Made by a program: the position numbers and the translations under genes. The notes under the pieces were generated by a model that was not told where the DNA came from, ran no database searches, and saw only the letters and a program-made list of their open reading frames with translations. Positions 2,236 to 32,260 of a stretch of DNA of 33,095 bases are shown piece after piece (the stretch's first letter is position 1; each line of letters begins with the position of its first letter). Location of the stretch: contig NW_021832095.1 of NCBI RefSeq assembly GCF_006345805.1, forward strand, positions 1 to 33,095, in the 5' to 3' direction. The stretch comes from Octopus sinensis (lineage: Eukaryota).

Positions 2236-2546
2236 GGGTATATACATATACTGATATAAACAGCTAGGCGCAATGTGATACCATAAAGAAAAAATGTCAT
2301 TGTCCCTAAATGTCACTAAAGGTGCCGAAGTACCTACATTGCTAGAAATAAGAGTTAAAATGTCCTTAATGCTGTAAGAAGAGCACAAATATATATATGG
2401 CGGACGGAATTAGCCGACCATCAGCCGTCGGAGTAGTTACTATTGACGTTGCCTACGGCGAAAGTAGGCCTGTTTTGTTATCCTTGACAGGGTCACGGGG
2501 TGGTTACCTTCCCTGTCAGTGTATGCCAGTATGTATTATGTATACA

Positions 2547-2776
2547 GCGGCGAGCTGGCAGAAACGTTAGCACGCCGGGCGAAATGTGTAGCCGTATTTC
2601 GTCTGTCGTTACGTTCTGAGTTCAAATTCCGCCGAGGTCGACTTTGCCTTTCATCCTTTCGGGGTCGATAAATTAAGTACCAGTCACGCACTGGGGTCGA
2701 TGTAATCGACTTAATACCTATGTCTGTCCTTGTTTGTCCCCTCTGTCTTTAGCCCCTTGTGGGTAATAAAGAAATA
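2547..2776 (+). mobile_element. Full-length tRNA-derived SINE family A with Tx1-like tail (tail 1), 17-bp TSD
   Basis: A-box-like TGGCAGAAACGTT, B-box GAGTTCAAATTCC, conserved core, tail ending GCCCCTTGTGGGTAATAAAGAAATA. Exact direct repeat AGTATGTATTATGTATA at 2528-2544 and 2777-2793. Confidence 0.92.
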
Positions 2777-3972
2777 AGTATGTATTATGTATATATGTAT
2801 GTGTGTGTGTATGTATGTATGTATGTATGTATGTATGTATGTATGAGTGTGTGTGTGTCAGCATTTGACACTATTTCTTCGGGCGTAGATCCATGGTCTC
2901 TCGAGACCGAAGGATGCCAACATGCGTACTACTACATAAGAATACACATATATGCACATATATGTGTATGTGTGTGTGCGTGCGTGTGGTGTGTGTGTGT
3001 GTATTTATGTATGCATGGATGAGCGGATGTGTATGGTCGAATTCACAGCTATAAGAGTGTCTGAGAGAACGCCTTGCAGTATTTTTCTAACTCAATGTTT
3101 TCTGAGTTCAAATTCCGTCTCGATCTACTTTCTTTTTCATTCTTTTAAGTTAAATAGAGTAACAATCCCGCGGTATGAAGACTGACAGTTAAAACACTGA
3201 ACTATACAGAAACCAATACGTGTGTGAATATATCTCTGTGTGTGCGCGCACGCGTATATGGTGTGTGTGTATGCACAAATATACATATACGCATATTATA
3301 TGTTTCATATACAAGCTAAATACGAAATAACTTGACACACTTTCTCTAAGCATAAAAAGCAGAATGTGTATCTAAGTGTTTATGTATGTGTATGTACCAG
3401 TATCATATGTTTGTGAATAACTGTAGTGGTGAACTAGGACCTAAATCACCTCCCTACTTAAGGTTTCGTAAAGCTAGCTGCATACAGACTTGACTGCAAT
3501 CTTAATTAACAAATACTTACTGAAGTGTTCTGTGACATACGGATAATGGAAGTTATTATGAAACATAAGATTTAGGTTTGAAGGACGAATTCCCGCCACC
3601 ACAAAACGCATTCACACATACAGATATACTTTCTCTTGACTCAGTGAGGGTCGCTATACTGGGTCTTTCGAGATACTAGAAATGGCAGCCAAGTTTCCTA
3701 GCCTACTTTATATCATAATTCCCTTAAAAACTGGAAATGATTTGACTCCTCTTGTCCTCAGTTAAAACAATTATTATTCACTCTGTGAAGATTATACTGC
3801 AAGATGCCTGCTGGATGTACATACTTTGAATTGGCGAAGTGCTCCTATTATAACTGAGTGAAGTATAACCAATCTTCCTTCGGTTATTCGAACCCTATGC
3901 TAGCATAGGTTCCTGCATGAAGTACTGACGAGGTCATCGCCTGAATTATACTTATCCTTTCAATTATTATAC

Positions 3973-4038
3973 AGATAGATAGGTAGATAGATAGATAGAT
4001 AGATAGATATAGATAGATAGATATAGATAGATAGATAG

Positions 4039-4077
<39 letters not shown>

Positions 4078-4098
4078 GATAGATAATAAATAGATAGA

Positions 4099-4130
<32 letters not shown>

Positions 4131-4159
4131 GAGACAGAGGTATTTACACACACACACAC

Positions 4160-4202
<43 letters not shown>

Positions 4203-4299
4203 AGATATATTTATATATATATATATATATTATATATATATAAAAGATATATATATATATAAGAGATATATTTATATATATATATAAAAGATATATATA

Positions 4300-4359
<60 letters not shown>

Positions 4360-4362
4360 TAT
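3973..4362. repeat. (GATA)n followed by (TA)n microsatellites
   Basis: Directly visible. Confidence 0.95.
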
Positions 4363-4467
4363 ACCGGAGTAAACACATAAATGTGAAACAAGGTGAAAAA
4401 AAGAGTACTCAAATACCAGTGGTAGAGTAATATGCTTTATTTTAAGCAGCAGAAAATTCAACAAAAT

Positions 4468-4505
4468 CTGTTACCCTGAGTTTCTCGTTGCCGTTCATCA
4501 GACAG
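4468..4505 (-). ncRNA. Minimal type I hammerhead ribozyme motif
   Basis: Minus strand reads CTGT-CTGATGA-ACGGCAACGA-GAAA-CTCAGG-GTA-ACAG: helix I CTGT/ACAG, intact CUGAUGA and GAAA cores, GUA cleavage triplet; A-A mismatch at the base of helix II. Confidence 0.7.
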
Positions 4506-4521
4506 TTTTTTCTAGCAAAAA

Positions 4522-4559
4522 CTGTCTGATGAACGGCAACGAAAAACTCAGAGTAACAG
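4522..4559 (+). ncRNA. Minimal type I hammerhead ribozyme motif (G12 mutated)
   Basis: CTGT-CTGATGA-ACGGCAACGA-AAAA-CTCAGA-GTA-ACAG; the GAAA core is changed to AAAA relative to the other arm. Confidence 0.6.
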
Positions 4560-4595
4560 ATTTTGTTGAATTTTCTGCTGCTTAAAATAAAGTAT

Positions 4596-4640
<45 letters not shown>

Positions 4641-4658
4641 ATATATAAGATAGATATA

Positions 4659-4875
4659 CGAGAGCGTGTCGAAAAGTTCCTGGATTTGGGTAAAAGAAAA
4701 TGCAGGAAGATCAGCTAATTATCATTTTATTCAACATATCCTCTCAGATTCATACACTGAGATTCATAGCGATCCTTCAGTTTTTGTAAGCCCTGTAAAA
4801 GAACTCCGAAGTGTGAACCCCCAGCCAGGCTTTTCGCGACACCCTTAGAGCCAGGAGCGTTGCAGCCCCCACTCG
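4659..4875. mobile_element. Mariner/Tc1-derived MITE
   Basis: TA on both sides (4657-58, 4876-77). Imperfect TIRs CGAGAGCGTGTCGAAAAGTTCCTGG ... CCAGGAGCGTTGCAGCCCCCACTCG. No ORF. Confidence 0.7.
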
Positions 4876-4959
4876 TAAATATACGAGTATGTATACATAC
4901 AAACATAATTAAAAAGTACTCAATATACAATAGAGTGCAATGATAATGATTTCATCAAT

Positions 4960-5075
4960 GGGCATCAGGCCAGAAATATTAGTACTGGGGGCAGGGGGTA
5001 TCAGTTGATTATATCGATTAAGCCTTTGACTCCAGAAAGATAAAAAAATGAAGTGGATCTCTGCAAGATTTTTAC
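4960..5075 (-). mobile_element. Degenerate SINE family A fragment
   Basis: Reverse complement shows a decayed core and a tail similar to other family A copies. Confidence 0.45.
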
Positions 5076-5107
5076 ATAAAGGACCGAACCTACATACTAC
5101 AGGTAAG

Positions 5108-5305
5108 GAGTAAAGACTCCATTCGGTCATGAATGGTCAGGGGGTTGCACCTAGAAAGTTATGAGGCACAAGTCCGAGCAAGATTGTGTATGGAAGACCA
5201 GTTGTCGCCTGTGCATACCAGTCTCCCCTCTCCACGCCTCCGATGGTATACAAAGGAAAGGCAAAGGCGGAAACAGCTTGGCACCAAGGACATCGCAACT
5301 CATTG
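5108..5305 (-). mobile_element. SINE body/3' fragment (possibly RTE-type tail)
   Basis: GC-richer non-coding segment recalled as part of an octopus repeat; no second copy in the window. Confidence 0.35.
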
Positions 5306-6014
5306 TATAATGCACTAACGAGTAATTACAACAGGAATTTTAGCACAACTCATATCGGAAAGCGGTAGCGCGAAACGGGGGTGTAAAATCATTTGCATTT
5401 TAAGTAGTTGTTTTATATATGTGTGTATGTGTATGTGTTTAAAGCGAATGACGTGTCTTTGACGTTTTGGAAGCTATTCCTTCTTCTGAAAGAAAAGACA
5501 TGAAGTGGAAACATGAGGAGAGGCGCTAGGTGTAAGGTTTGGAATAAAGCAACGAGAAAAAAATTCAAAATAATTAAGAGGAAAAAGCAAAAGAGGATGA
5601 ATGGTTGTAAGCCTTGGGGAATGATATTCTTTGGGGATGAATCAGAAAATGACGGGAGGTGCATATGTCAGAATGAGTGTGTGTACCTTGAAGAAGTCAC
5701 GTCGCGAGATGCGTTAGCGTGTGCAATTTGAAGGGTGTATGTACTTATGGTTGTGTGTGCGCGTGCAAACTCGGAGACTTTAGTGCGAGTGTGAGGGTGA
5801 ATGAACGTGTGTGTTTTAGTAGGTAGTGTCAATGCGTGTGTGTGTGTGTGTATGTGAGAGAGAGAGAGAGAGAGAGGCAAGTCTATTTGTGTGTAAATAC
5901 ATGTATTGGGGATGTGGTGTGAGGTGGTGTTCGTAGGTTGAAAGTGTGTGCGATGTGAATAGCGTTTTAATGTCTGTGCACCAACTTGTAATTCTAATAT
6001 GTGTATTGGTCAAG

Positions 6015-6130
6015 GAATAGCACGAATGTCCGTTCTCAGTGTTTGCAGTCAACTTTGCCTTTCATTCCACCGGGGACAATAAAATCAAGTGCCAGTTATG
6101 TACTGGAGTCGATATAACCGAGAAGCCCTC
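6015..6130 (+). mobile_element. SINE family A core fragment
   Basis: GTCAACTTTGCCTTTCATTCC...CCAGTT...ACTGGAGTCGAT core. Confidence 0.7.
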
Positions 6131-7239
6131 CTATCAGATTTACTATCTTAATACACGTCTCACTGCAGCTCGTCTCGACCGAGGAGCAATACTGTGTCAA
6201 GCGTGGAGCGAGATTGCACGTCTGGTATCTAGAATGTTGCTATGCACTTGCGGCTTTGATTCAACTGCACAACGCTGTCAGTGGGAAAACAACCATCTTA
6301 TTCTGTAGCAGATTTAGCAGATTAATGGAGGGTATGAACAACGATGGTCTGGGACCGACTGTGGGCGTTAAGAGCAGTCTCAGCAGTCAATTTTGAGCGA
6401 TTTTCTATTCAGGGGCTATGGACATCTTCCAAATATCCTTTACATTACAGTGTTATAAGGAAGAGGCTTTAACTGTTCGAGACAAGCTCTGCAAGCAGGG
6501 TAGTACCAACAGCTGAACCGACTCGGGTTGATCTTCATGTTGTTGTTTGACGCCTTTGATGCTCAATCATTGCCAACTTTTGGGTTTGTGTCGAATAACT
6601 GTTGCCGCATGTAGCATGCAGTTAACTATAAGATGATTTTATAGTGAAGATCGGTGCGCCACATTCTCTTGTAGGAAAGGGCAGCTAGTTTTTCTCTGCC
6701 GAGTGCCTATGACAAGAGGAGTAGTATAGTGGACTCGTCTAAAATGTTTGAAGATAGAAGTAGATAAGTCTGTTGCCCAGCTCACATCAACTTGAAGAGA
6801 AAGATGAAGAAATACAAGGAGATTCTGCCTTCTACTTAACGAAATACGGCTAGGAACAGCAACACTGGTGGGGTTGAATGGCGATTCTAAAGTGGCTTTT
6901 CTAAATAGGAATGAAGATTCCGAGAGAGGGCCCACTTGACGCCATAGACATGACAGAGTAATCTGAGTCTTTGTGTGAAGTTTCCTCCGAATTATCCTTG
7001 ATTGTCTTTTCTCCCGGTTGGGGAAGTTTCCATACATGTTATCATATTTATTCTTGTTTATTTTACTTTTTGTAACGTGATTTTTTTATGAACAAATACT
7101 AAAGTGTTCTGTAACAAGCGTATAATAGAATCTATTATGAAACATAATGGCTCGATGCAAACGACATTTATGTGTGTTTGTATTTCGTCCCTGTATGTAC
7201 TCAACGTTCTGAGACGTTGGGGACAAGATCAATTATTTC

Positions 7240-7363
7240 AGAATCGTTAGCACGCCGGACAAAATACTTAGCGGCATTTCATTCGCCTTTATGTTCTGAG
7301 TTCAAATTCGACTGAGGTCAACTTTGCTTTTCATCTTTTCGCGGTCGATGAAATAAATACCAG
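7240..7363 (+). mobile_element. SINE family A (head + core)
   Basis: CAGAATCGTTAGCACGCCGG...GAGTTCAAATTC...GTCAACTTTGCTTTTCATC. Confidence 0.85.
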
Positions 7364-8490
7364 TTTTAACATCCGGTCATCAGAGTTTTTCAGGTAGGTG
7401 TTTAGGCCAATTGTGACAATCTTCGTTGTTAATTCCAGTTGTAAAAATCCACAGACACCCTCTTTTCTTGGCAGGTAGAGTCGTTATTAGCCTTCTTTGG
7501 GTATTTGCCATTGAGAAGTTTTTCTTGCCATTTATCAGTAAGAAAATCTATGGCAACTGTTTTAGCGCGGGTTTTCATATGCTTAGCTTTTTTCTGTGAT
7601 TGTGTCCTGAACATATAATTGTGTGACACGTTGTATTTGGAATTCACTCAGATAATTCTTTGCCTGTTTTGTTTATGAGTATGGTGTTTTCTTGTTTTCA
7701 TGTCTTAAGACAAGTTTTAACATCCAGTCATCAGAGATTTTCAAGTAGATATTTAGGTCAATTGTGGCAATCTTCATTGTTAATTCCAGTTGTAAAAGTC
7801 CACGACACCTTATTTTCTTGGCAGATAAATTCGTTCTATATTTGCCTTAGGGTAGTGCATTCCTTGCACTGTCAACAATTTTCGTATTTTTCTGTCAAGA
7901 TTACATATTTCAGTGATTGACCAGTTAATAATATTGAGACTAAGTCACAACCGGTATGGCTAAAGTACTGATCGCTTCTATCCTGTTTCTTGCATTCTGC
8001 TCTGTCTTGCCCTTACACTGCGATATTCTTTTCTGATCTTTTCCCTCGTCATTGAGTGTTTGATTCTATCACCATCAAATACCCCTAGGTATTTGTAGTT
8101 CTCCACTGGTTATAACTCCTTTATAGCATTCTGTTGGTCAAAATTAACGTTGCATGTTTCTATCATTTTTCCTCTGATAAAGGTAGCTTTTGCACATTTA
8201 TCGAGGCCAAATTCCATCCTGATGTCATTACTGAATTCTTTAACGATTGCTAGTTGTTGGTCATTTTTTTACAAGGAGCTTTAAATCATCCATGTAAAAA
8301 GAGATGATTTATATTTCTATGAAACACTTTATAGCCAAATTGTACATCATCGATCAATTTCAAGAAAGCTTTTAAGGCTAGACAGAAGAAGAGCGGTAAT
8401 AGGTAGTTACCCTGGAAAATGCTACATGAAATTCGTACATCTCCAGCATTGAGAGATTATGACTGTTCAAAGTGAGTATGGTTACACGTC
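7362..8490 (-). pseudogene. R4/Dong-like non-LTR retrotransposon reverse transcriptase fragment (frameshifted)
   Basis: Minus-strand translation across frameshifts: ISCSIFQGNYLLPLFFCLAL, INHLF/YMDDLKL, FSNDIRMEFGLDKCAKA, YKYLGV, NLDRKIRKLLT, MHYPKA..ERIYLPRK, KWQEKLLNGKYP. These match RT domains 4-7 and the thumb of RLE-type (R4 clade) elements. Confidence 0.88.
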
Positions 8491-17020: not shown

Positions 17021-17796
17021 GCATGCACACCCACGCACACACATACACACTCATATATATAATACTTATATATACATAAATTTTTATAAACATATGTATT
17101 TTACATACATATATACACACATACATGTGTGCATACATATGTTTTATGTGCATATATGCGTGTATGTGTATATATTTGCATCTCTTTACAAATACATACA
17201 CGCTGAGTTGATGTGTATTTGTGTATTCACGTCAGTATATATTGATGTTTCATTTTTTTGACCAGAATTAAGCTCCTTTTTCAATGAGTTATATAACCTG
17301 AATGCTTTAAAATGATAATAAGTGAAATGTTTCATTTGTGTTGAATTTATCGCTATAATAATAAACTATTTTCCGAGTGAATAGTATTGAATACATTTCG
17401 AGAATACTGTTGCCATTAACGCTTTGTTACATTCTATCAATTCTGAATAGAAATTTGAGGTGAGTCACGAGAGCACTTGAATGACTGTTCTGTATCAAAC
17501 ACGACGTTGATATCTTGTTGATCTACATTTTGTATTTGAAAATATTTGTGACGTAAAAGAAGTCACATGAACATTGCACAGTAAATTAATAACCAGAAGG
17601 AAAGAATAGTATCTTCTAAACAAATGAGTAAATATAGTCTGGTGTCTAACGCTTACAAATGAAATTAGAGACTGTTAGTATGGCTGAAATGTGGACAACT
17701 TTCTTAATTGTCTAAATATATTGTTGGTGATTCTCCACAGGTGTCATTTGTCATATATATCATAATCATCATCATCATCATCATCATTGGTAAAAC

Positions 17797-18026
17797 GGCG
17801 AGCTGGCAGAAACGTTAGCACGCCGGGCGAAATGCTAAGCAGTATTATATCGTCTGCCGCTACGTTCTGAATTCAAATTCCGCCGAGGTCGACTTTGCCT
17901 TTCATCCTTTCGGGGTCGATAAATTAAGTACCAGTTACGCACTGGGTCGATGTAATCGACTTAATCCGTTTATCTGTCCTTGTTTGTCCCCTCTATGTTC
18001 AGCCCCTTGTGGGTAGTAAAGAAATA
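17797..18026 (+). mobile_element. SINE family A with tail 1 (Tx1-like)
   Basis: Very similar to 2547-2776; ends GCCCCTTGTGGGTAGTAAAGAAATA. Confidence 0.92.
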
Positions 18027-18160
18027 GGTATTTCGTCCGTCGCTACGTTCTGAGTTCAAATTCCACCGAGGTGGACTTCGCCTTTCATCCTTTTGGGGTC
18101 GATGTAATCAACTAGTCCTCTCACCCCAATTCTCAGGCCTTGTACCTTTAGTAGAAAGGA
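18027..18160 (+). mobile_element. Headless SINE family A with tail 2
   Basis: Starts at GGTATTTCGTC; core has a deletion between the two GGGGTCGAT repeats; tail CAGGCCTTGTACCTTTAGTAGAAAGG followed by (TAT)n. Confidence 0.85.
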
Positions 18161-18174
18161 GTATTATTATTATT

Positions 18175-19177: not shown

Positions 19178-19840
19178 AGTTGTATGAAAACTCACAGTTC
19201 ATTTTGCTGGGTATGATGGAAAGTATCAGCGGTCCACAGCCAGCAGAGTAAGGTGACACTTGTTTACTGGTCATACTTCAAGAACTCTGCGAAGAATTCT
19301 TGCAGTTCTAGGCAATGCTGATTTTTGTAGAAGTTCTACCTTCACACTTGCACCCATCTTTTTCAGCCATGCTGGTAGTTGAGTGCTGATACTTCCAAAT
19401 GCACCAATTACTATTGGTATCATTAACTCTCTTCATTAACCACAACTTTCGTATTTCCCACTTTAAATCGTCGTAGTTGTTTATTTTTTCTTCTTTCACA
19501 TTGGTCCTGTTGTCATCGGGGCATGCTATGTCGATAATCACATATTCTTTTTTATTCACCACAACAATGTCAAGTTTCCTATGTTTGGTCTGGATCATTA
19601 CATCCCACGGGATTTTATTTTCGGTGACTCCTTCTGCGGTTTTCTCATACCACGTCTTTGCTCTTTGTGGGATGTGATTCCCACAGAGCTCCCAATGGAT
19701 CATTTTTGCCACATTGTCATGGCGCCGTTTGTATTCGCGTTGTGCCAATTTCGAGCATTCGTTAATGATGTGCCATACCGTTTCACCCCTCTCACCGCAC
19801 ATTCTCCATTTGTCGCTATCGGTAGTATTATCAATTTTGT
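19178..19840 (-). mobile_element. Dong/R4-like LINE 3' fragment (zinc knuckle + RLE endonuclease + 3' UTR)
   Basis: RMCGERGETVWHIINEC, YKRRHDNVAKMIHWELC, WD..IQT.HR.LDIVVV...IIDIACP.D...KEEK, IPIVIGAFG, QKSALPRTARILRRVLEV*; the 3' end runs into (TAA)n. Confidence 0.92.
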
Positions 19841-19876
19841 GTGTGCGTTTGTACTTGTGAGCGTGTGTAAATATTA

Positions 19877-19960
19877 GGGTCGATTTGTTAGATTAAACCC
19901 TTCAAGACGGTGCCCCAGCATGGCCGTAGTCCAATAACTGAAACAAGCAAAAAATAAAAG
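19877..19960 (+). mobile_element. SINE family B 3' tail
   Basis: CGGTGCCCCAGCATGGCCGTAGTCCAATAACTGAAACAAGCAAAA matches the tail of the 10805 copy. Confidence 0.75.
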
Positions 19961-27208: not shown

Positions 27209-27401
27209 GGTTTCAAATTTTGGAACAAGGCCAGCAAGTTCGGGGACAAGGATAAGTCAATTACCTTGATCCCGGTACTCATCTGGTACATATTTTATCG
27301 ACACCGAAAGAGATGAAACGCAAAGTCGATCTCGACGGAATTTGAACTCAGAACATAAGGGACGGACGAAATGCCACTGAGCTATCTGCCAGCTCGCCGC
27401 T
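27209..27401 (-). mobile_element. SINE family A with tail 3, aged 20-bp TSD
   Basis: Head (internally deleted), core, tail GGCCTTGTTCCAAAATTTGAAACC. Flanks TTTCATCCTCCATTGGTATT (27189-27208) and TTTCATCCTTCAATGATATT (27402-27421) are 17/20 identical. Confidence 0.85.
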
Positions 27402-28391: not shown

Positions 28392-28607
28392 ATAATCCTT
28401 TCTACTATAGGCACAAGGCCTGAAAGTTTAGGGAGGGGTCTAGTCGATTACATCAACCCCAGTGTTTCACTGGTACTTAATGTATCGACCCTGAAAGGAT
28501 GAAAGACAAAGTTGATCTCTGTAGAATTTGAACTCAGAGCGTAGCGGCAGACGAAAAACCACTAAGCATTTTACCTGGGGTGCTAACGATTCTGCCAGCT
28601 CACCACC
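28392..28607 (-). mobile_element. Full-length SINE family A with tail 2
   Basis: Head, core and tail CAGGCCTTGTGCCTATAGTAGAAAGGATTAT on the minus strand. Confidence 0.88.
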
Positions 28608-28780: not shown

Positions 28781-28987
28781 GCGAGCTGAAAGAATCGTTA
28801 GCACACTGGACGACATGCTTAGCGGCATTTTGTCCGTCTTTACATTCTGAATTCGAATTCCGTAGAGGTCGACTTTGCCTGTCATCATTTCGAGGTCGAT
28901 AAATTAAGTACCAGTGAAACACTAGGATCGATGTAATCTATTTAGGCCCGACACCCAAAATTACTAGCCTTGTGCCAAAATTTGAAA
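28781..28987 (+). mobile_element. SINE family A with tail 3 followed by long (ATT)n
   Basis: Head, core, tail AGCCTTGTGCCAAAATTTGAAA. Confidence 0.88.
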
Positions 28988-28988
28988 A

Positions 28989-29042
<54 letters not shown>

Positions 29043-30322: not shown

Positions 30323-32260
30323 AAGTTTCTTTATTGGCCACACAGGGCTGCACACAGATGGGACACATTACAAGGTAGAGCTTTTCTTTTGGGGGATGAA
30401 AAAAAAATGGTGGCGTAGGTTTCCGATCAAAAGGGATCGTAAAAGGGAAAAAAGAAAGAAAGAAAAAAAAGGAAAAGAATCAAAAGAAAAGAAAAAAGAA
30501 AAAAGAAGAAAAAGGAGGAAAAAAGGGGAAGATGTAAAAAAACGATCAATAGGGAACCTTGTATCACAGTGTCATGATGTACGGTGTAAAGGGGGAAGCA
30601 GATAAGGTTTATCCGTGGGAAGAAAAGCCTACGAAAAAGACCACGGTAACCTCGGTCAATATTGTTATATGTTACCACATTTGTTTGCAAGTGGGTAACC
30701 CTCTGTTTTCAATTTCTGGGTTCATAGGATTATGCTCAAGGTGGCTTCGTCATTCATACGTGCCATCCTTGCTACATTCAACCATTTTTTTTTTAAACAT
30801 TCGCTAGACAAAACTTGCCTCTCTACTCTCACTTTCCTTTGAAGAAGTTGAGAGATTAACCAGAGAGGAAAGTGTTTGTCTCCAATCCTTTCAGATGCGT
30901 CCACCAGATACATTCTTTCGCCATAGCCACAAGGATGATGAAAATAGCTCTTCCTTCCCGTTTGAAGGAAGGAGGCGTGACAATATTGACGATAGACTCA
31001 GCTGATAAACCGACTCGTCCCACACGTGACAGCAGTTGTTCGGCATAAGCCCACAGGTCGGAAATTGTTGGACACTGCACGAGTGCGTGCAGAACGGTTT
31101 CGTCGCTCTGACCGCATCTCGGGCAGGTCGGCCCCGTGTTTCTCGAGCCGTGTCTGTAGAGCTTATCCCGAACGGGTAGCGCTTCTCGGTAGCCTTGCCA
31201 GACCAGGGATCTCTGGAAGTTGTCCATGGGCCCTGGCCCGAAAGTCGTCCCGAACAGGCAGGTCAGGTATTCCTCGTCGACGTCCAGGTTCGCCCCGAGC
31301 TCGTCGTCGTACCTCCCCTCCACTAATCCCCTATAGAATGCTTGGGTTGTGATGGAGTCACTCAGGGTCGACCCGGGACGGCAGAGTTGCTTGAGAGCAA
31401 CGTGACACTCGCGGTGCCATTCGCCCTTCCTCGGCCTCTTTTTGATCCACGACTGCACTTCGGTCATAGAGACTAGCTGCGGGAAAGCGTGCCTCACAAA
31501 CAGCAACCACACCTGTTCACCGTCGTCTACGAAGAGCCTGAGATGTCGCAGTCTCAGAGCGTGTCTGCGCATTATCAACCACGGCATGCCCAGTCCTCCT
31601 TTTAACGGGTGTTGACAGCAAATGGATCGCCTGACCATCGGGACGCATCCTTTCCACAAGAAGCGAAAGAGAATGCGTTCTAGTTGGGTGATGGTAGGGT
31701 CGGGACAAGGCACGACAGTCAGGCGGTAGTAGATGACGGACGCGATGTACGTGTTCGCCACCTCCGCCGGACCTTTTAGGGACAGTTTCCTCTCGGCCCA
31801 TTGCCGGGCGAGAGTGACCACCCTTCTCGTTATCTCGTTCCAGTTCTTCTCCATTTGGAGGTCCGGACCGAACCAGACCCCAAGCAACTCGACCGGACCG
31901 TCGGTCCAGCGTCCCACGACGAAGTCGCTGGTGGACGGCATGAGCTTGTTTCTCCAGGTGCCTAGTCGCAAGCCCACTGACTTTTCCCGGTTGATTTTCG
32001 CTCCTGTCACCGCTTCGTAGTTTTTCAGTGTCTCACCGACCTTCTCGATGTGCTCGTGGCTAGACACTATGACGGTGATGTCGTCCGCGTATGCAGACAC
32101 GCTCGTCCCGCATCCCAGTTCTCGCGGGATGCCCCTCAGAGTTGCCAGCTTCCGCAATAATGGCTCGAGATTCAATACGTATAGAAGCGAACGTGCGATG
32201 TCGAAAGGTCTCGACAGATGTCCATTTACGCGAATTACCGAACGGGTGCCTCTGTACAAA
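30323..32260 (-). mobile_element. 5'-truncated Tx1/L1-clade non-LTR retrotransposon
   Basis: ORF2 C-terminal half plus a pyrimidine-rich 3' UTR ending GCCCTGTGTGGCCAATAAAGAAACT; bounded by (GATA/GACA)n and (GGTA)n. Confidence 0.93.
30722..32259 (-). pseudogene. Tx1/L1-type ORF2 remnant (RT domains 4-7, thumb, zinc knuckle)
   Basis: LLYVLNLEPLL, SAYADDITV (YADD at 32080-32091), YEAVTGAKINREKS, LLGVWFG, LSLKG, GGLGMP, CPRCGQSDETVLHALVQC. Stop/frameshift near 30856, after which ERQVLS..KKW continues to 30722. The QG motif is missing. Confidence 0.92.

Follow-up and report, generated by a model that had tools for sequence, protein, structure and literature searches.

A shared 3' tail links an abundant octopus SINE to a radiation of Tx1-like LINEs

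The sharing of a 3' tail between a short interspersed element (SINE) and a long interspersed element (LINE) is textbook knowledge, and the locus described here raises the question of which LINE stands behind one such tail. The locus is a 230-nt, non-coding, interspersed SINE at positions 2547-2776 of a 33,095-nt stretch of Octopus sinensis DNA (contig NW_021832095.1 of assembly GCF_006345805.1, positions 1 to 33,095, forward strand), which we refer to as the window. A preliminary description noted that its tail resembles the 3' end of a Tx1-clade LINE in the same window, and proposed that a Tx1-related family drives the SINE. Our analysis confirms that the tail sharing is real, and it is stronger than could be seen from the window alone. 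The proposal itself survives as a reading of the sequences, the tail being a conserved Tx1-like end, but it does not hold for the family to which the window's LINE belongs (family A). Judging from sequence comparisons, the tail is almost certainly of Tx1-like origin, and the SINE is very probably mobilised by the Tx1-like radiation of this genome. Within this radiation, the family that we call D, or its closest kin, would drive the SINE in trans, rather than family A; we give this reading a probability of roughly two in three.

The shared tail and its hairpin

The SINE tail (2728-2774) aligns with the minus strand of 30326-30375 at 39 of 47 positions, with three gap bases in two gaps, and the single-gap version given earlier (38 of 47) is reproduced as well; the two ends are co-terminal, as described. 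The 47-nt match is beyond chance: its local score is 42, compared with maxima of 30 for dinucleotide shuffles against the LINE 3' end (2000 runs) and 32 for those against the whole window (100 runs). The matching segment is the LINE's own end, as had been assumed, and a separate SINE remnant at 30326-30375 is ruled out, as the motif is joined to the LINE 3' untranslated region (UTR) in 29 of 30 copies and the end of the thirtieth is degraded. Both ends carry the small stem-loop noted earlier (GCCC-CTTGT-GGGT in the SINE, GCC-CTGTGT-GGC in the LINE), and the second SINE copy, at 17797, has the same tail. By minimum free energy, the 2547 copy alone among these three sequences folds better than its shuffles (z -2.7, against +1.0 for the LINE end and +0.6 for the 17797 copy).

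Across the Tx1-like families of the genome, the stem varies while its pairing is kept (GCCC/GGGT, ATCC/GGAT, CCT/AGG, GATT/AATC and GATC/GATC). At least three Watson-Crick pairs form between the native arms of 22 of 28 tails, compared with 97 of 576 combinations of swapped arms. In a 19-row alignment, 81.6% of the cells of a 4-pair stem are paired, with 12 double-sided changes, none of 500 shuffles is as high and slid controls give 8.5-51%, although the choice of this structure from the tested sequences themselves and the relatedness of the rows weigh against these figures. So do two folding results: RNAalifold returns no consensus structure on a MAFFT alignment of the tails, and folds of individual tails differ from shuffles at p<0.05 in 3 of 27 cases, one tail being mis-located. 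On balance, the Tx1-like 3' hairpin is likely to be functional, and because the stem covaries across families it points to structure-based recognition of the RNA. In the zebrafish elements ZfL2-1 and ZfL2-2 such a stem-loop is essential, and its loop confers specificity (PMC4176376).

The Tx1-like families and their 3' ends

The Tx1-like families were sampled from the 2.72-Gb genome by a zf-RVT search, in which 150 of 24,040 candidates were scored. Their 3' ends were read in 30 returned and 60 fetched loci, in 90 loci from DNA and pattern searches, and in 55 loci from two protein searches. Most complete ends have the form TGT..TCTRTGT-hairpin-AATAAA(GAAAT). In a tree of 16 proteins the genome's Tx1-like elements form one clade (100/100), in which (J,A) is sister to ((G,(E,P)),(D,H,F,I)); its root depends on four unnamed ENA proteins and was flagged for long branches, and an earlier 27-row tree was run in quick mode only. 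D, H and F form one clade (100/100), with open reading frame 2 (ORF2) sequences about 72% identical. Pfam matches place an APE endonuclease, a reverse transcriptase and a C-terminal zinc finger in the ORF2s of D, F and P, and a zinc knuckle in the ORF1s of D, F, G and P. ZCCHC3-type RNA-binding domains, which are not known to be universal, are present in a fish homologue (P0075) but were detected in none of the scanned ORF1s, with which it aligns in the zinc-knuckle region only.

When 27 representative Tx1-like tails are scored against 60 SINE copies, family D ranks first (63.2), followed by C (61.1), D2 (56.2), E3 (53.6) and E1 (52.2), with family A 15th of 27 (40.2); family P, found after this ranking, scores 47.1. 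Over the same 60 copies the exact co-terminal match has a median length of 28 nt in D, as against 0 in A, and the median exact shared word is 10 nt for A versus 28 nt for D, which argues against the pairing with the window's own family. The upstream part of the SINE tail is shared exactly with families E and P (median words of 24 and 23 nt, respectively), whose hairpins differ from that of the SINE. Because this part matches E and P while the terminus matches D, the SINE tail looks like a mosaic, or like an ancestral state that has been split among LINE branches, and the tree accommodates either.

Four genome patterns were designed to find a LINE in which both segments of the tail are present, but they turned up no such LINE. 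The first had no match. The second had nine, comprising six of SINE type, two with A/C-like LINE sequence upstream and a LINE-type end, and one other. For the third (31 matches), 27 of 30 loci have a SINE body and three are without LINE-like upstream sequence; for the fourth (58 matches), 32 of the 36 examined have a SINE body and four are truncated, with no ORF2 motif. A motif taken from a loose end in a public sequencing run has no match in the genome. Separately, a Tx1 family targeting (TAGG)n was considered as the partner and rejected, as all nine pattern matches are SINEs inside TAGG repeats.

The target preferences of the Tx1-like families are diverse: A lies in (TATC)n, P at one SINE site, and one G-type copy beside a U1 small nuclear RNA (snRNA) gene. 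Family P is a LINE that is site-specific for a SINE. All 33 copies with a located end lie at a single site within a second SINE, likewise abundant and tRNA-like (L350-L384), and one of them (L351) is full length, with ORF1 at 2748-4211, ORF2 at 4211-7621, the head of the target SINE upstream and a 16-bp target site duplication (TSD). The 5' end of the U1 gene (L160:2228-2391; Rfam 125 bits) directly adjoins the G-type copy; in four close relatives of that copy a different, shared sequence follows, not U1. Fixed 3' neighbours also occur in J, before (ATT)n, in N, before (TC)n, and in G2, before one constant sequence (L192; L235, L388; L161-L168), and some copies stand in tandem, about 5.3 kb apart. 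Copies of D, E and K often precede variants of one repeat (..CCAGACC/CCAGTCC..TGACCAC..), a shared preferred target (L141, L156, L250-L252, L269-L276, L280, L349, L367, L424, L426-L428).

Proposed mobilisation and target choice

In family D, the candidate mobiliser, one copy (L179) combines a zinc-knuckle ORF1 with an intact ORF2 of 1128 aa that includes endonuclease, reverse transcriptase and zinc finger, and 23 of 29 D ends combine the SINE-type hairpin with AATAAAGAAAT. Since four copies are 98-99% identical to another copy (L180), D has been recently active. Its TSDs could be resolved in 7 of 22 long copies (11-17 bp) and, by eye, in three truncated copies (15-17 bp); lengths of about 10-17 bp are common to D and the SINE. 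Parts of D are also covered by contigs of three presumed-RNA runs, which we do not count as evidence of its expression. Because D and H share the CUUGU loop with the SINE, they are, by analogy with ZfL2-1 and ZfL2-2, the likely candidate readers of its RNA.

In the mechanism that we propose, the ORF2 protein of D or its closest relatives would copy the SINE in trans. It would bind the small hairpin 5' of AAUAAA, in a recognition of the stringent type known from zebrafish L2, and nick DNA with little sequence preference; reverse transcription would then be primed where the nicked target can pair with a few RNA bases 3' of the tail. Many source copies are multimers in which GGUAUU follows the tail, and for this reason the offspring would land at GGTA sites. 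The tail itself would have arisen as a mosaic by template switching, or would be an ancestral state of which each LINE branch kept a part.

Several observations weigh against family D in this role. The D tail is without the SINE's upstream segment (5' score 16.5, versus 48.9 for E1), and in the youngest D subgroup the base directly 5' of the hairpin is G instead of A. D seems to be low-copy, with at least about 20 matches at 84-100% protein identity among the 150 scored, compared with more than 80,000 SINE tails, and its mean pairwise identity is 93%, compared with 98% for the closest SINE copies (small samples). D targets do not begin with GGTA, and several D copies share 3' flanks or occupy recurring repeats, so that the family is not fully dispersed. 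Family H, with the same hairpin and intact ORF2s, means that D is not unique, and the LINE sampling covers 150 of the 24,040 zf-RVT candidates and, beyond the Tx1-like families, CR1/L2-like, I-like and R4/Dong-like ends.

Some of these points favour the alternative that more than one Tx1-like family (D, H, F, K and others) mobilises the SINE, or that an unsampled one with both tail parts does. The hairpin of H is GCCC-CTTGT-GGGT, as in the SINE, and that of F is a one-base loop variant; there are many open frames of about 1132 aa at 63-66% identity, likely belonging to H; the upstream segment is closer to E and P than to D; and the small fraction of zf-RVT candidates scored (150 of 24,040) leaves room for such a family. 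The terminus of H is, however, AATAATAAAAC and not AATAAAGAAATA, and the four patterns built to catch a both-segment LINE returned none, and we regard this alternative as unlikely but not negligible. The direction of transfer could also have been the reverse, with D acquiring its end from the SINE by template switching, in which case the match would say little about the mobiliser. The SINE does outnumber D by orders of magnitude; against this, D, H and F, which form one clade, have hairpins of the same type, and the sister A/J branch has a close variant, so that the LINE end is inherited vertically and a reversed transfer is extremely improbable.

Family A was the partner first suggested by the window, where its end has the 39 of 47 co-terminal identities given above, and it is abundant (2579 candidates; 96% pairwise identity; 40 genome relatives at 88-100%). 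Its hairpin differs from that of the SINE in register and loop, and it ranks 15th among the 27 tails. CT(TATC)n directly follows nearly all of 30 family A copies, and many are 5'-truncated at varied points and bounded on either side by (TATC)n; the SINE, by contrast, is dispersed, and its TSDs start with GGTA. We consider it very unlikely that this (TATC)n inserter drives the SINE. The window's copy is flanked by (TACC)n and (TATC)n microsatellites. In L070, a copy of nearly full length, both ORF1 and ORF2 are present. Pieces of family A ORF1 have no Pfam match; for the L070 ORF2, the named homologues that score best carry the label "Transposon TX1 149 kDa protein" (279 bits; automatic names), compared with 118 bits for human L1 ORF2p and 60-68 bits for R2 proteins. 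Family A is thus likely to be Tx1-like. Broken pieces of a long-terminal-repeat-retrotransposon-like reverse transcriptase, RNase H and integrase lie 5' of one family A copy (L069:50-1700, minus strand; by eye).

Alternatively, the tail could be a Tx1-derived relic, and a non-Tx1 LINE (RTE, CR1/L2 or R4/Dong) could now copy the SINE. According to Table 1 of PMC13282606, Octopus vulgaris has RTE, CR1 and Dong-R4 elements with recent activity; RTE ends lay outside our non-Tx1 comparison, and some dimers end in a second tail type followed by (ATT)n, and so may use another LINE. No sampled CR1/L2-like, I-like or R4/Dong-like end matches the tail: 20 non-Tx1 loci (CR1/L2-like and I-like, about half with a complete end) score 13-28, which is background level. 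In addition, SINE monomers, which are flanked by TSDs, stop precisely where D does and are without the terminal repeats of non-Tx1 LINEs or poly(A). This alternative therefore seems highly improbable. The CR1/L2-like and I-like families (L439-L458), several with long open frames, end in short tandem repeats, for example (ATCTAAGTTT)n, (ATT)n and (TAAC)n. The window itself has an R4/Dong-like LINE 3' fragment at 19190-19892 (minus strand), with CCHC and PD..D-type nuclease motifs by eye and an end in (TAA)n; it has no Pfam match, and by eye its end is unlike either SINE tail.

The insertion sites of the SINE provide a separate view of target choice. TSDs of 8-17 bp flank 21 of the 30 closest SINE copies (mismatched-flank control, 9 of 870 pairs), and GGTA occurs within the first five bases of 18 of these 21, against a background of 0.3%. 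In one copy (L055), GGTA is found in the right TSD where the left has GGCA. Many SINE copies are multimers. What follows the tail was counted for 147 tails in fetched loci, which are not a random sample and from which nine TAGG-selected loci were left out: 44 tails precede a monomer that begins at the GGTATT site of the SINE itself, and six precede one that begins at AGAAACG. The ratio of GGT-type to AG-type dimer junctions is 43:2 in the subfamily with a GGGT stem arm and 1:4 in that with GGGC. Copies that are not dimers follow the same division, with GGT after the tail in 34 of 74 GGGT-type versus 2 of 23 GGGC-type copies (p=0.001) and AG in 5 of 74 versus 8 of 23 (p=0.002); for monomers with a TSD of at least 9 bp, GGT is found in 21 of 30 versus 2 of 9 (p=0.019). 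The insertion motif thus differs by subfamily, and mirrors the bases that follow the tail in multimers. Because it tracks what follows the tail in multimeric copies, the motif suggests microhomology priming by read-through RNA, which suits the counts more closely than endonuclease cleavage at a fixed motif would; the pattern would look similar if each subfamily had a driver of its own.

Taken together, these observations might describe an animal lineage of the L1/Tx1 group that recognises its RNA stringently by a covarying 3' hairpin and is parasitised by one of the main SINEs of the genome through a two-branch tail, with target choice partly encoded in the RNA by read-through pairing. We offer this combined picture tentatively. 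RNA-encoded target choice, if true, would account for the insertion motifs of the SINE subfamilies, and would explain sister families locked on (TATC)n, (TC)n, (ATT)n, U1 and another SINE.

The window's SINEs and comparison with known pairs

The features of the window are collected in Table 1.

Table 1. Coordinates and basis of the SINE and LINE features in the window
Feature	Position	Strand	Basis
SINE monomer with the shared tail (tail 1), young subfamily	2547..2776	+	30 best genome matches 98-100% identical, full length
Left TSD, 17 bp	2528..2544	+	repeated exactly at 2777-2793
Right TSD, 17 bp	2777..2793	+	repeats 2528-2544 exactly
A-box-like RNA polymerase III (Pol III) motif	2556..2566	+	motif match
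B-box-like Pol III motif	2620..2630	+	motif match
Body common to tail-1 and tail-2 SINEs	2631..2712	+	blastn against 28442-28604, 28781-28944 and 27253-27372
Upstream tail segment, like Tx1-like families E and P	2721..2744	+	longest exact shared word
Last 28 nt of the SINE, the same as at the 3' end of Tx1-like family D	2749..2776	+	co-terminal and exact against L151
Predicted 4-bp hairpin with CUUGU loop, directly 5' of AATAAA	2752..2764	+	stem covaries across Tx1-like families
Second tail-1 SINE monomer	17796..18026	+	91% identical overall to the 2547 copy
Second monomer, headless, with its start at the SINE's own GGTATTTCG site and tail type 2	18027..18166 (end approximate)	+	
Family A LINE, 5'-truncated, C-terminal part of ORF2 and 3' UTR	30324..32253	-	RVT_1 and zf-RVT matches
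3' terminal motif of family A, a homologue of the SINE tail	30326..30375	-	in 29 of 30 copies

The 2547 copy had been described as young and flanked by an exact 17-bp TSD. The TSD is as stated, and youth applies to its subfamily, in which the 30 best genome matches, a set picked for similarity, have a pairwise identity of 98.1%; a small sample of unselected copies gives 89.5%. The genome matches a 29-nt pattern of the tail exactly at 80,890 places and a control nowhere, and all of 30 unselected loci of this pattern have the SINE context. Six of the 30 closest copies are dimers, and by virtue of its headless monomer the 17796 copy is a dimer as well. The head gives a weak tRNA-like call at a relaxed threshold, and none with ARAGORN at default settings or with Rfam at E<=10; the spacing from A box to B box is about 20 nt above that of a typical tRNA. 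By eye, the likeness of the window SINE to the CORE-SINE consensus is weak and confined to the 3' half, while the CORE 5' half is seen in the second SINE that family P targets, not in the window SINE. As to an insertion polymorphism at 2547, no contig bridges the site in three raw-read runs that are nearly devoid of the SINE, and these runs speak neither for nor against it.

SINEs with the second tail type share head and body with tail 1, and are found at 28604-28385 (minus), 28781-29000 (plus), 27400-27200 (minus) and 18027-18166 (plus). Their hairpin is GGC-CTTGT-GCC-like, with the same loop as tail 1, and (ATT)n is often next to it; no partner was found among the 20 non-Tx1 LINE loci. Tandem SINE arrays with a period of about 185 bp also occur at many loci (e.g., C1:8970295-8971814), in which one head is followed by repeated headless monomers.

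Among known systems, the octopus SINE most resembles the stringent pairs of eel UnaSINE/UnaL2 and zebrafish ZfL2-1/ZfL2-2, which in the parts of the sources consulted (PMC3472496, PMC3747384, PMC4176376) likewise have a co-terminal tail with a small hairpin and a non-coding SINE with Pol III-like boxes. It differs from them in that the partner belongs to the L1/Tx1 group and the SINE has no terminal tandem repeat or poly(A). In crocodilians, mobilisation of SINEU has likewise been attributed to Tx1-clade elements (Tx1-Mar), as argued from shared target preference and age; no LINE with the 3' terminus of SINEU-1 is reported in the consulted part of that paper (Kojima 2015, PMC4494074). SINEU ends in poly(A), whereas the octopus SINE has a 28-nt identical LINE terminus, a covarying hairpin, a weakly tRNA-like head and a dispersed distribution. 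The octopus LINEs resemble Kibi, Koshi, Keno, Tx1L and Tx1-Mar, as presented in the same part of PMC4494074, in their ORF2 with endonuclease, reverse transcriptase and zinc finger, in their zinc-knuckle ORF1, and in having families locked on microsatellites, an snRNA gene or a mobile element. They constitute a subclade of their own, with ORF2 identities of about 30% to Tx1-named proteins of fish and coral and 35-41% to the unnamed ENA proteins; their targets include (TATC)n and a SINE, and no ZCCHC3-type ORF1 domains were detected. The octopus tRNA-SINEs OK, OR1 and OR2 (Ohshima and Okada 1994, via PMC4758252 and PMC5804259) are likewise abundant and tRNA-like, a likeness by description only, and the consulted parts of those two papers name no partner LINE for them.

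In the literature covered, which includes neither Repbase, Dfam and SINEBase nor most subscription journals and was available in part, there is one Tx1-SINE link, based on shared targets and not on a shared tail. No Tx1-SINE tail pairing appears in the consulted portions of PMC4758252, PMC5804259, PMC8967140, PMC5753468 and PMC10294476, or in parts of two supplements. A 2026 annotation of Octopus vulgaris lists 13 recently active L1-Tx1 families and leaves its SINEs mostly unclassified, and the words "partner" and "tail" are missing from its main text (PMC13282606, in the part consulted). A database note of the present pairing may already exist, although we think this rather doubtful.

What is new here is a tail-sharing SINE partner for the Tx1-like radiation, with signs of stringent recognition; tail sharing itself is known. 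In the accessible parts of the surveys by Ohshima (PMC3747384, PMC3472496), CR1 and RTE dominate 58 SINE/LINE pairs, three tails are of the L1 clade (monocot and green-algal cases are named), and Tx1 is not among the partners, so that L1-group partners are almost absent and a tail-sharing Tx1 partner is missing from them. For the octopus, the Tx1-like LINEs are a likely engine for a SINE with a copy number above 80,000, and SINE expansion has been noted as a feature of this genome. For the L1 group, it has been proposed that recognition by its elements was stringent at first and was later relaxed to poly(A) (PMC3472496), and the many related families of this radiation, several with intact ORF2s and with differing hairpins and targets, are a natural panel for examining this stringent-to-relaxed idea.
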